Assembly: GCF_988243305.1 (NCBI RefSeq)
Contig: NZ_OZ547136.1
Strand: one strand, 5' to 3'
Length of the DNA: 64,000 bases
Position 1 is the stretch's first letter. Each line of letters starts with the position of its first letter. The notes below the pieces were generated by a model. It was not told the DNA's origin. It did not search any database and saw nothing but the letters and a program-made list of their open reading frames with translations. Both the position numbers and the translations under genes were made by a program. Of this stretch, positions 52,801 through 57,972 are shown piece after piece.

Positions 52801-53442
52801 TTATTCAAAGAACTGACTTATTTTCGCTTTCAATATATCGATGGCGATGCGGTTTTTCCCGCCGCGCGGCACGATAATGTCCGCATATTGTTTAGAAGGC
52901 TCAATGAATTGCAGGAACATCGGACGCACGGTTTTTTGATATTGCGCCATCACTGAATCCATTGAACGCCCACGCTCGTTAACGTCACGCTTGATGCGGC
53001 GCATCAGGCAGATATCCAGCGGGGTATCAACGAAAATTGAGAAGTTAAGTTCATCACGCAAACGCGCATCCGTTAGCAGCAAAATGCCTTCGAGAATGAT
53101 GACTTTCTTCGGCTCAACCGTCACCGTTTCTTTCATACGCGTATGTTCAACATAGCTGTAAACCGGCAGGTCAATTGCCGAGCCGCGTTTCAACGCTTGT
53201 AAATGCTCAAGCAGCAGGCTGTGATCCATCGCGCTGGGATGGTCGTAGTTGGTCTTAACGCGTTCTTCCATCGACAGATGGCTTTGATCTTTGTAATAGC
53301 AGTCTTCGGGAATTACGCCGATGTGTTCATCACCGACTTGCTCACGTAATTCACGATAAAGGGTACTGGCAATAAGACTCTTGCCGGAAGCCGATGCGCC
53401 AGCGATACCGATAATGACGCACTGATGAGACTGATCAGTCAT
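52801..53442 (-). CDS. udk: uridine/cytidine kinase
   Basis: ORF 52801-53505 trimmed to start at [22 protein letters not shown] (Walker A), 213 aa. Confidence 0.9.
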
Positions 53443-53759
53443 ATATTTAGCGACCTGATTAACCTGGATGTTAGGAAGGGGGCGACGAAGCGCCAAACGC
53501 GGCAATTATAGGGATTTCATCCGCCTGATACCAGTCGAATAGCGTTGCCGCGCGCTCAGAGTTAATTGTTGACAAAGAATTCCCGGTGGCAAATTACGTT
53601 GATCAGTTTTATACAAGGTAAAAAATGTTATACGCCGTTGCGCAAATTATCCGCCTTTACGTCACTTTATGAGCAATTCGCATATAAAATGTAAAACTTT
53701 TGTACTAGCATAAACACAGAAACGAATACTGGCGACCTGGTCTTGCGGATAAAGCGGTA

Positions 53760-56700
53760 ATGAGCAAACAATCACAGCATGTATTAATTGCCCTGCCCCA
53801 CCCGCTGCTTCACCTGGTCAGTTTAGGTTTAGTCTCGTTTATCTTTACCCTTTTCTCGCTTGAGCTTTCGCAGTTTGGCACCCAACTCGCCCCACTGTGG
53901 TTCCCGACGTCCATCATGATGGTGGCGTTTTATCGCCATGCCGGGCGTATGTGGCCGGGGATTGCGCTGAGCTGCTCACTGGGAAATATCGCCGCATCCA
54001 TCCTGCTTTTTTCCACCAGCTCGCTGAACATGACCTGGACGACCATCAATATTGTTGAAGCCGTGGTCGGGGCAGTGCTACTGCGTAAATTGCTGCCGTG
54101 GTATAACCCATTGCAAAATCTGGCTGACTGGCTGCGTCTGGCACTCGGCAGCGCCATTGTTCCGCCTCTGTTGGGGGGTGTTCTGGTTATCCTGCTGACG
54201 CCCGGAGACGATCCTCTCAGGGCATTTTTGATATGGGTACTGTCAGAATCCATCGGCGCACTGGCACTGGTGCCACTGGGATTGTTATTTAAACCACACT
54301 ATCTGCTGCGCCATCGCAACCCAAGGTTGCTTTTTGAGTCGCTGCTCACGTTAGCCATCACACTGACGTTAAGCTGGCTTTCGATGCTGTATCTGCCGTG
54401 GCCTTTTACTTTCATTATTGTGCTGTTGATGTGGAGCGCCGTGCGCCTGCCACGAATGGAAGCCTTTTTGATCTTCCTTACCACGGTGATGATGGTGTCA
54501 CTGATGATGGCCGCGGATCCCTCCCTGCTTGCTACGCCGCGTACATACCTGATGAGCCATATGCCGTGGCTACCGTTTTTGCTGATCCTGCTGCCCGCCA
54601 ACATCATGACCATGGTGATGTATGCCTTTCGTGCGGAACGCAAACACATTTCCGAAAGCGAAACCCGCTTTCGGAACGCGATGGAATATTCCGCTATCGG
54701 TATGGCGTTAGTGGGCACCGAGGGACAATGGCTGCAATCCAACAAAGCACTCTGCCAGTTTCTCGGTTACAGTCAGGAAGAGCTGCGCGGACTCACCTTT
54801 CAGCAACTGACCTGGCCGGAGGATCTCAATAAAGATCTGCAACAGGTTGAAAAGCTGATCAGCGGTGAAATAAACACCTATTCAATGGAAAAACGCTACT
54901 ACAACCGCAATGGCGATGTTGTCTGGGCGTTGCTTGCCGTCTCACTGGTGCGCCACACGGATGGCACGCCGCTCTATTTTATCGCTCAGATTGAAGACAT
55001 TAACGAGCTAAAACGCACCGAACAGGTGAATCAGCAACTGATGGAGCGCATCACGCTGGCTAACGAAGCGGGCGGGATTGGCATCTGGGAGTGGGAGCTT
55101 AAGCCGAATATTTTTAGCTGGGATAAGCGGATGTTCGAGCTGTATGAAATTCCTCCGCATATCAAACCGAACTGGCAGGTGTGGTACGAGTGCGTGCTGC
55201 CGGAAGATCGCCAGCATGCCGAAAAAGTGATTCGTGATTCGTTGCAATCACGCTCTCCCTTTAAACTGGAATTTCGCATTACCGTGAAAGACGGCATTCG
55301 CCATATCCGCGCCCTCGCTAACCGGGTACTGAATAAAGAAGGCGAAGTCGAACGCCTGCTCGGCATTAATATGGATATGACCGAGGTAAAACAGCTTAAC
55401 GAGGCATTGTTTCAGGAAAAAGAGCGCCTGCACATTACGCTGGATTCCATCGGCGAAGCCGTGGTCTGTATTGATATGGCAATGAAAATTACCTTTATGA
55501 ATCCGGTGGCGGAGAAGATGAGCGGCTGGACGCAGGAAGAAGCGTTAGGTGTTCCACTCCTGACGGTGTTGCATATTACTTTTGGCGACAACGGACCATT
55601 AATGGAGAACATTTACAGTGCCGACACCTCACGTTCCGCGATTGAACAAGATGTGGTGTTGCACTGCCGAAGCGGCGGCAGCTACGACGTGCATTACAGT
55701 ATTACGCCGTTAAGTACTCTGGACGGCAGCAATATTGGTTCGGTTCTGGTGATTCAGGACGTCACCGAATCGCGCAAAATGCTGCGCCAGCTGAGCTACA
55801 GCGCCTCCCATGATGCACTGACGCATCTCGCCAATCGCGCCAGTTTTGAGAAGCAACTACGCATCCTGCTGCAAACGGTAAACAGTACACATCAGCGACA
55901 TGCACTGGTGTTTATCGATCTTGATCGCTTTAAAGCGGTGAATGACAGCGCCGGGCACGCCGCTGGCGACGCTTTACTGCGCGAACTGGCGTCATTGATG
56001 CTGAGTATGCTGCGCTCCAGCGACGTGCTGGCGCGACTCGGTGGCGATGAATTTGGTCTGCTGCTGCCAGATTGTAATGTCGAAAGTGCGCGTTTTATCG
56101 CTACACGCATTATCAGCGCCGTGAATGACTATCACTTTATCTGGGAAGGACGTGTACATCGGGTAGGTGCCAGTGCCGGGATTACCTTGATTGATGACAA
56201 CAATCATCAGGCGGCTGAAGTGATGTCGCAGGCTGATATCGCCTGTTATGCCTCCAAAAATGGTGGCCGGGGCCGGGTGACGATTTACGAACCGCAGCAA
56301 GCTGCCGCACATAGCGAACGGGCGGCGATGTCGCTTGATGAACAGTGGCGGATGATTAAAGAGAATCAGTTGATGATGATCGCCCACGGTGTCGCTTCGC
56401 CGCGGATCCCGCAAGCGCGTAATTTGTGGCTGATTTCACTTAAGCTCTGGAGTTGCGAAGGCGAGATTATTGATGAACAAACATTTCGTCGTAGCTTCAG
56501 CGATCCGGCACTTAGCCATGCTCTTGACCGACGGGTATTCCACGATTTTTTCCAGCAGGCCGCCAAAGCGGTTGCCAGTAAAGGTATAAGCATCGCCCTC
56601 CCGCTTTCCGTTGCCGGTTTGAGTAGCGCCACGCTGGTGAATGAACTAATTGAGCAGCTGGAAAATAGCCCTCTACCACCACGGTTATTACATCTGATTA

Positions 56701-57077
56701 TTCCGGCAGACGCGATTTTAGATCACGCAGAAAGCGTGCAAAAACTGCGGCTGGCGGGATGTCGGATCGTATTCAGTCAGGTGGGCCGCGATCTGCAAAT
56801 CTTCAACTCGCTGAAAGCGAATATGGCAGATTACCTGCTACTTGATGGTGAGTTATGCGCCAACGTGCAGGGAAATTTGATGGATGAGATGCTGATTACG
56901 ATCATTCAGGGGCACGCTCAGCGGCTCGGGATGAAGACCATCGCCGGGCCAGTAGTTTTACCCCTGGTGATGGATACGCTTTCTGGCATCGGCGTCGATC
57001 TGATTTATGGCGATGTGATTGCCGATGCCCAACCGCTGGATTTGCTGGTGAATAGCAGTTATTTCGCGATTAACTGA
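53760..57077 (+). CDS. dgcE: membrane-anchored diguanylate cyclase (sensory N-terminus, GGDEF domain, C-terminal EAL-like region)
   Basis: 1105 aa ORF; hydrophobic N-terminal third; GGDEF motif present (RLGGDEFGLLL); no canonical EAL motif seen in the C-terminal region. Confidence 0.88.
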   Translation: MSKQSQHVLIALPHPLLHLVSLGLVSFIFTLFSLELSQFGTQLAPLWFPTSIMMVAFYRHAGRMWPGIALSCSLGNIAASILLFSTSSLNMTWTTINIVEAVVGAVLLRKLLPWYNPLQNLADWLRLALGSAIVPPLLGGVLVILLTPGDDPLRAFLIWVLSESIGALALVPLGLLFKPHYLLRHRNPRLLFESLLTLAITLTLSWLSMLYLPWPFTFIIVLLMWSAVRLPRMEAFLIFLTTVMMVSLMMAADPSLLATPRTYLMSHMPWLPFLLILLPANIMTMVMYAFRAERKHISESETRFRNAMEYSAIGMALVGTEGQWLQSNKALCQFLGYSQEELRGLTFQQLTWPEDLNKDLQQVEKLISGEINTYSMEKRYYNRNGDVVWALLAVSLVRHTDGTPLYFIAQIEDINELKRTEQVNQQLMERITLANEAGGIGIWEWELKPNIFSWDKRMFELYEIPPHIKPNWQVWYECVLPEDRQHAEKVIRDSLQSRSPFKLEFRITVKDGIRHIRALANRVLNKEGEVERLLGINMDMTEVKQLNEALFQEKERLHITLDSIGEAVVCIDMAMKITFMNPVAEKMSGWTQEEALGVPLLTVLHITFGDNGPLMENIYSADTSRSAIEQDVVLHCRSGGSYDVHYSITPLSTLDGSNIGSVLVIQDVTESRKMLRQLSYSASHDALTHLANRASFEKQLRILLQTVNSTHQRHALVFIDLDRFKAVNDSAGHAAGDALLRELASLMLSMLRSSDVLARLGGDEFGLLLPDCNVESARFIATRIISAVNDYHFIWEGRVHRVGASAGITLIDDNNHQAAEVMSQADIACYASKNGGRGRVTIYEPQQAAAHSERAAMSLDEQWRMIKENQLMMIAHGVASPRIPQARNLWLISLKLWSCEGEIIDEQTFRRSFSDPALSHALDRRVFHDFFQQAAKAVASKGISIALPLSVAGLSSATLVNELIEQLENSPLPPRLLHLIIPADAILDHAESVQKLRLAGCRIVFSQVGRDLQIFNSLKANMADYLLLDGELCANVQGNLMDEMLITIIQGHAQRLGMKTIAGPVVLPLVMDTLSGIGVDLIYGDVIADAQPLDLLVNSSYFAIN

Positions 57078-57093
57078 GGCGTGCTTCCCCATC

Positions 57094-57117
57094 GCCTGAT
57101 GCGGCGTATCAGGCCTA
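57094..57117. repeat. REP element overlapping the alkA stop codon
   Basis: gcctgatgcggcgtatcaggcctac palindrome. Confidence 0.75.
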
Positions 57118-57972
57118 CAATTCGTCCGTTCCGTCTGGTTGCCAGCCTTCCGTATACCAGATATGCAACAGCGCATAAGAACGCCAGGGCTTCCAGCGTT
57201 CGGCATAACGGCGGATTTGTGCCGGTGTCATTCCCGGAAATCGCTGTTTAATCAGATAATCATCCGGCAGGAAAACATCTTTCGCCTGCCAGCCACGTAA
57301 GGCGAAATAATTCGCCGTCCAGCGCCCGATACCCGGAAAAGTTTGCAGCGTTTTCATCGCTTGCTCTACGTCGCCCGGAAATGTCATTGGTAAGGTGCCC
57401 TCCAGCGCCGCATTTGCCAGATGAATCAGTGCCTCTGCCCGTTTCAACGGCATACCTAACGCTTTTAATGCCTGCGGGTCGGCTGCAGCCAGCCGCTGAG
57501 GCGTGGGGAAGCAGACATAATCCGGAAAATCATCCAGCCGTTCGCCATAAAGCTGTGCCACTCTGGCGGTCAATTTTGCCGCCATCGCCACGCTCACCAG
57601 TTGGCCTAAAATCGCCCGCACGCCCTGCTCAAAAGCATCAACACTGCCGGGTAAACGCAATCCGGGCCGCGCCGCGCCTAACTTGCCCAACGCACCGTTA
57701 ACAATCTGCGGGTTACATTGCAGATCAAACAGGCGGCTCATTTTCGCCAGACACTCTGCGGCAACAGGTTCTAAACCTGCACTTAAATTTATGTGCAGAG
57801 TATGGCGGGCTATATCCGGAATAGCAGTCACCACGCCGCGATATTCGCCCACCGCCAGACTACGGGCATAATAATCGTCAGCGACCGTTTCCACACCGTT
57901 CACCGCACGGGCGGCGAGAAATCCCAACATCCACGACCAGTCATACGGCGGCTGCCAGTTCAGGGTATACAT
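57115..57972 (-). CDS. alkA: 3-methyladenine DNA glycosylase II
   Basis: 285 aa ORF starting MYTLNWQPPYDW. Confidence 0.92.
   Translation of the reverse strand: MYTLNWQPPYDWSWMLGFLAARAVNGVETVADDYYARSLAVGEYRGVVTAIPDIARHTLHINLSAGLEPVAAECLAKMSRLFDLQCNPQIVNGALGKLGAARPGLRLPGSVDAFEQGVRAILGQLVSVAMAAKLTARVAQLYGERLDDFPDYVCFPTPQRLAAADPQALKALGMPLKRAEALIHLANAALEGTLPMTFPGDVEQAMKTLQTFPGIGRWTANYFALRGWQAKDVFLPDDYLIKQRFPGMTPAQIRRYAERWKPWRSYALLHIWYTEGWQPDGTDEL

Follow-up and report, generated by a model that had tools for sequence, protein, structure and literature searches.

As the top-level cyclase, DgcE sets off formation of the curli and cellulose matrix in E. coli biofilms, which makes dgcE an important gene. 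Its architecture, in which a membrane-integral MASE1 domain and a PAS region precede a GGDEF domain and a degenerate EAL domain without all key residues, has been described previously (Pfiffer et al. 2019, PMC6510439). In that work, the output of DgcE was found to need the GGDEF motif, its activity to need both MASE1 and the PAS region, and the PAS region to dimerise, while the degenerate EAL domain proved inhibitory, in that its deletion raised DgcE output and the domain counteracted oligomer formation (PMC6510439). RdcA binds MASE1, and the GTPase pair RdcA/RdcB activates DgcE via this domain, which also mediates fast proteolytic turnover of the protein; the signal proposed is the falling GTP pool at stationary-phase entry, probably reported by RdcA/RdcB (PMC6510439). 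More recently, a 2026 study described DgcE as the major E. coli cyclase, recovered dgcE together with rdcA, rdcB and ynjH when the whole genome was screened for low c-di-GMP, and reported that c-di-GMP is inversely coupled to membrane potential/PMF in a DgcE-dependent manner (PMC13031359).

Here we describe a dgcE homologue in a 64,000-nucleotide stretch of DNA (the window). An initial annotation, made from the sequence, had given the protein the name DgcE and had read it as a cyclase whose EAL-like region is catalytically inactive and serves regulation. Both the name and the reading are borne out by the NCBIfam match NF007298, the RefSeq annotation of identical loci, the residue alignment and the published description (PMC6510439). 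We put at roughly 97% the probability that the window carries an intact and ordinary E. coli dgcE (yegE, b2067), encoding an active cyclase with an inactive regulatory EAL-like domain.

Results

A full-length dgcE between udk and alkA

The open reading frame begins with an ATG and encodes 1105 amino acids followed by a stop codon; neither a frameshift nor a premature stop was seen in the ORF list and translation (Table 1). The protein matches the NCBIfam equivalog NF007298 (PRK09776, diguanylate cyclase) over its whole length, with residues 1-1105 aligned to positions 1-1111 of the 1111-position profile at 2068.1 bits, for which the curated equivalog cut-off is 1135 bits. When a 4-kb query was run by megablast against complete E. 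coli genomes, the dgcE locus was found between udk and alkA in 5417 of 5426, the top match being E. coli O158:H23 at 99.9% identity. The NF007298 score, the position between udk and alkA and the domain order, which runs from MASE1 through three PAS domains and GGDEF to a degenerate EAL, are all those of the DgcE orthologue group. The protein is DgcE by identity and by architecture, its GGDEF active site and I-site are intact, and its EAL catalytic residues have been wholly lost.

Antisense and overlapping ORFs within the gene (for example one of 148 aa on the minus strand at 54299-54745) were judged spurious, because strong purifying selection acts on the dgcE sense frame, which is homologous over its full length.

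Table 1. Features of the dgcE locus and DgcE residues at the conserved positions of EAL phosphodiesterases
Feature	Window position or DgcE residue	Strand	Basis
udk-dgcE divergent intergenic region, dgcE promoter and 5' UTR	53506..53759	.	nearly identical to K-12
dgcE (yegE) CDS	53760..57077	+	ORF translation; NCBIfam NF007298; dgcE annotation in 99.9%-identical RefSeq loci
MASE1 membrane-integral domain (aa 19-294)	53814..54641	+	Pfam PF05231, 123.8 bits, profile 2-298/299
PAS1 (aa 303-416)	54666..55007	+	Pfam PAS/PAS_9/PAS_3, isolated segment, E about 1e-11 to 1e-12
PAS2 (aa about 452-537)	55113..55370	+	Pfam PAS_3, 44.6 bits on isolated segment
PAS3 (aa 555-672)	55422..55775	+	Pfam PAS_4, 47.8 bits on isolated segment
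GGDEF domain (aa 682-838)	55803..56273	+	Pfam PF00990, 155.7 bits, profile 1-160/161
RxxD I-site RSSD (aa 752-755)	56013-56024	+	motif search; then VLARL, then GGDEF
GGDEF motif (aa 761-765)	56040-56054	+	motif search; within peptide RLGGDEFGLLL
Degenerate EAL-like domain (aa about 897-1088)	56448..57023	+	Pfam PF00563, 72.8-78 bits, profile 38/39-234 of 236
E of EAL motif	L891/I892		seven-PDE alignment, register +/- one residue
Arg of EALxR	K895 (MAFFT register), L896 if shifted by one		seven-PDE alignment
Conserved N	P948		seven-PDE alignment
ExxE (E..E)	I980/A983		seven-PDE alignment
DD	S1006/Q1007		seven-PDE alignment
Catalytic K	L1027		seven-PDE alignment
E..E (EGVE)	G1063/V1066		seven-PDE alignment
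Q	Y1083		seven-PDE alignment

Sensory region and cyclase domain

The membrane N-terminus and central sensory repeats that the initial annotation had ascribed to this 1105-aa ORF were confirmed by the translation and by Pfam, which identified MASE1 and three PAS domains. Hydrophobic peaks in a Kyte-Doolittle profile are mainly confined to aa 8-289. Pfam searches with the whole protein placed several PAS models across aa 303-672, and scanning the protein in pieces separated three PAS domains in this region; the TIGR00229 sensory_box model also matches DgcE in three stretches. These domain matches lie far above the curated cut-offs and are not due to chance.

The GGDEF motif noted in the initial annotation lies within a full-length match to the GGDEF domain profile. 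The upstream motifs are intact as well, with DLDRFKAVND at aa 720 (DxDxFKxxND) and GHAAGD at aa 732 (GHxxGD), both of which we take, from the structures of PleD and WspR, to serve in Mg2+/GTP binding. DgcE has the sequence features of active GGDEF cyclases, namely GG(D/E)EF, DxDxFKxxND and GHxxGD. Five residues ahead of the GGDEF motif there is also an RxxD I-site, an optional feature that does not define cyclase activity, and the domain as a whole carries no amino-acid change relative to K-12. In K-12, a GGAAF mutant of DgcE is null and a strain in which dgcE has been deleted has very low c-di-GMP (PMC6510439, PMC13031359). Together with these K-12 genetics, the intact GGDEF domain supports the prediction that the DgcE of the window synthesises c-di-GMP.

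A C-terminal domain with an EAL fold and a replaced active site

Turning to the long C-terminal region, in which no canonical EAL motif had been recognised, we found literal EAL tripeptides in DgcE only at residues 548 and 594, both in the PAS region, and none in the EAL-like domain. The fold signal is clear: PF00563 matches aa 898-1088 with 72.8 bits when the full-length protein is searched and reaches 78.0 bits with the C-terminus alone, both exceeding the 31.3 bits that Pfam sets as its gathering threshold. Since the profile match starts at position 39, the part of the profile that bears the EAL motif is left unmatched.

To identify the equivalent residues, seven active K-12 phosphodiesterases (PdeR, PdeH, PdeL, DosP, PdeF, PdeC and PdeK) were translated from their annotated loci and aligned with MAFFT, and the DgcE C-terminus was aligned to an HMM built from this alignment. 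The match was significant (E = 2e-13) over everything C-terminal of the EAL-motif segment, and all ten of the catalytic, metal and ligand columns that are invariant in the seven active enzymes are replaced in DgcE (Table 1). The equivalent of the EAL motif itself is L891-I892-S893, or I892-S893-L894 with a one-residue shift in register, the EAL-motif segment (aa 885-899) falling outside the significant HMM alignment and its register being uncertain by one residue. As no D or E occurs anywhere in aa 885-899, the catalytic Glu is missing in either register. Furthermore, a pairwise HMMER alignment with the active phosphodiesterase RbdA/PA0861 (PDB 5xgb) gave the same residue replacements. DgcE therefore keeps the EAL fold signal but lacks every one of the residues by which an active EAL phosphodiesterase is recognised, and the domain is, as judged from these positions, catalytically dead. 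A domain scan combined with an inspection of the EAL residues, which the initial annotation had proposed as its own check, thus found a GGDEF domain and no intact EAL active site, leaving that reading in place.

The same residues bear on whether the domain might be an unusual but working c-di-GMP phosphodiesterase, or a c-di-GMP-binding receptor of the FimX or LapD type; by way of this domain DgcE would then be either bifunctional or feedback-sensing. Receptor-type EAL domains (FimX, LapD) retain several substrate-contacting residues, whereas E, N, ExxE, DD, K, E..E and Q are all replaced in DgcE, and the Arg of EALxR corresponds either to the related Lys K895, in the MAFFT register, or to L896, if this is shifted by one. 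So although the EAL fold signal is clear (72.8-78 bits), the best PDB matches include FimX, a degenerate EAL domain that still binds c-di-GMP, and the DgcE domain is under purifying selection (dN/dS 0.14), we consider a working enzyme or receptor very improbable, and favour a domain that is regulatory and inactive.

Divergence from K-12 and selection on the gene

At the protein level, the DgcE of the window is identical to that of K-12 at 1092 of 1105 residues (98.8%), with 99 differences over the 3318 nucleotides of the gene. The 13 substitutions (V144I, H303R, T327S, V842I, L874I, E885Q, E929D, S946A, D962E, L964I, E984D, L1005F and E1085D) are all conservative (V/I, L/I, E/D, S/A, E/Q, L/F, H/R, T/S), and 10 of them fall in the linker and EAL-like domain (56277-57074, aa 840-1105), that is, in the last 266 residues or 24% of the protein. 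In a Nei-Gojobori comparison of the window dgcE with that of K-12, a single pair that offers a hint only, dN/dS was 0.047 overall, 0.025 in MASE1, 0.027 in the PAS region and 0.143 in the linker and EAL-like domain; in the GGDEF domain it was 0, with 23 synonymous and no non-synonymous changes. These values hint that the EAL-like domain is still under purifying selection, as would fit a role kept without catalysis, and that this selection is several-fold more relaxed than on the rest of the protein.

A decaying or non-functional allele, such as those found in some Shigella lineages, would fit the way most substitutions (10 of 13) cluster at the C-terminus (266 aa) and the scarcity of records (just 95 of 5419) that match the 4-kb query at 99% identity or more, but it is exceedingly improbable given a full-length frame with start and stop as in K-12, uniformly conservative substitutions with a dN/dS of 0.047 overall and 0 in GGDEF, and the absence of any IS element from dgcE and its upstream region in the window.

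Considered as a population observation, these 95 records are those that reach at least 99% identity to 53400-57400, most E. coli records lying at 95-99%. The dS relative to K-12, at 0.12 overall and 0.22 in the GGDEF segment, is higher than usual for core genes of E. coli. The low identity and high dS suggest either that the window comes from one of the rarer lineages or that the segment at the dgcE locus has recombined.

Flanking regions

A simple sigma-70 scan of the region upstream of dgcE (53506..53759) returned no site on the + strand. This is compatible with RpoS dependence, which we assume for dgcE on the basis of earlier reports, and does not show it.

In some E. coli genomes an IS5 element lies in this intergenic region, directly after a CTAG (53706-53709 in the window) that lies about 52 bp ahead of the dgcE ATG. 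Among the closest relatives of the window allele, several carry this IS5, and the window itself is free of it; the number of genomes with split or partial matches at the site, from which the count is inferred, is roughly 25-31 of about 5420. With the likely promoter region on one side of it and dgcE on the other, an IS5 here could change expression of the gene and, through it, control of the biofilm matrix. A further observation concerns strain ST2747 (NZ_CP007394.1), where the udk-dgcE intergenic query is matched with 100% identity at 2894282-2894592, in a feature annotated as 'hypothetical protein', and is found in two places in the record; this may mean that the 5' end of dgcE is duplicated or differently annotated in ST2747.

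On the other side of the gene, the spacer between the convergent dgcE and alkA measures 37 bp in the window (57078-57114) compared with 108 bp in K-12. About 62 further bases in the K-12 spacer, a REP-like palindrome (GCCGGATAAGGCG...CGCATCCGGC) among them, have no counterpart in the window. Because these REP-bearing bases are missing, the spacer is shorter and the C-terminus of AlkA is changed, the protein having 285 aa in the window (ending ...GWQPDGTDEL) versus 282 aa in K-12. A terminator scan found no intrinsic terminator between dgcE and alkA. Inside the dgcE ORF it found 8 terminator-like sites versus 4.2 +/- 2.0 in shuffles, and since this count is close to the shuffle expectation we treated these sites as chance.

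Discussion

Because the protein carries what is expected of DgcE and of an active GGDEF domain, and lacks what is expected of an active EAL domain, the dgcE of the window is an already known protein that matches its published description, with nothing new about it. The gene is important and the copy in the window is confirmed as a normal allele, so the finding no longer counts as a candidate for anything new.

In the mechanism that would follow for this allele, DgcE would act as an inner-membrane cyclase in which two protomers, once brought together, allow the GGDEF domains to condense two GTP into c-di-GMP. The PAS region would promote dimerisation, as would the dynamin-like GTPase RdcA, bound to MASE1 and acting with RdcB. 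The C-terminal EAL-like domain, predicted to neither bind nor hydrolyse c-di-GMP, would serve as an internal brake against productive oligomerisation. The c-di-GMP made by DgcE would then feed the PdeR/DgcM/MlrA module, which would switch on csgD and thereby the curli/cellulose matrix.

The initial annotation had also called the input signal of DgcE poorly defined. This is only partly current, because input from RdcA/RdcB via MASE1 (2019, PMC6510439) and a dependence on membrane potential/PMF (2026, PMC13031359) have been reported; it still holds for the mechanism of PMF sensing and for the ligands of the PAS domains. As an unlikely further possibility, the EAL-like domain, which evolves about five times faster non-synonymously than the remainder of DgcE (dN/dS 0.14 versus about 0.03, in a single pair), could be a lineage-tuned surface for a partner or ligand that sets the strength of the brake across E. 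coli lineages, and one or more of the PAS domains might sense a small-molecule or redox signal, possibly tied to the PMF dependence.

Among known systems, FimX and LapD share with DgcE an EAL fold without phosphodiesterase activity and are among its best PDB and NCBIfam sequence matches; in contrast to the DgcE domain, which also lacks the binding residues, they bind c-di-GMP. The EAL-like domain of DgcE has instead been reported to act via dimerisation and anti-oligomerisation (PMC6510439). E. coli PdeR (YciR) and P. aeruginosa RbdA (PDB 5xgb) share the PAS-GGDEF-EAL core, and both of their catalytic domains can be aligned with those of DgcE. In these proteins, however, the EAL is the active domain, whereas DgcE pairs an active GGDEF with a dead EAL and possesses an N-terminal MASE1 as well (PMC6510439). 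A further close counterpart is K-12 DgcE (YegE, b2067, NP_416571.1). The window differs from K-12 by the 13 conservative substitutions and by the lack of the REP element downstream of the gene. The two proteins share their length of 1105 aa, their domain order, an identical GGDEF domain and EAL positions that are replaced alike, and the window and the K-12 MG1655 locus share the gene order asmA-dcd-udk / dgcE / alkA-yegD-yegI.
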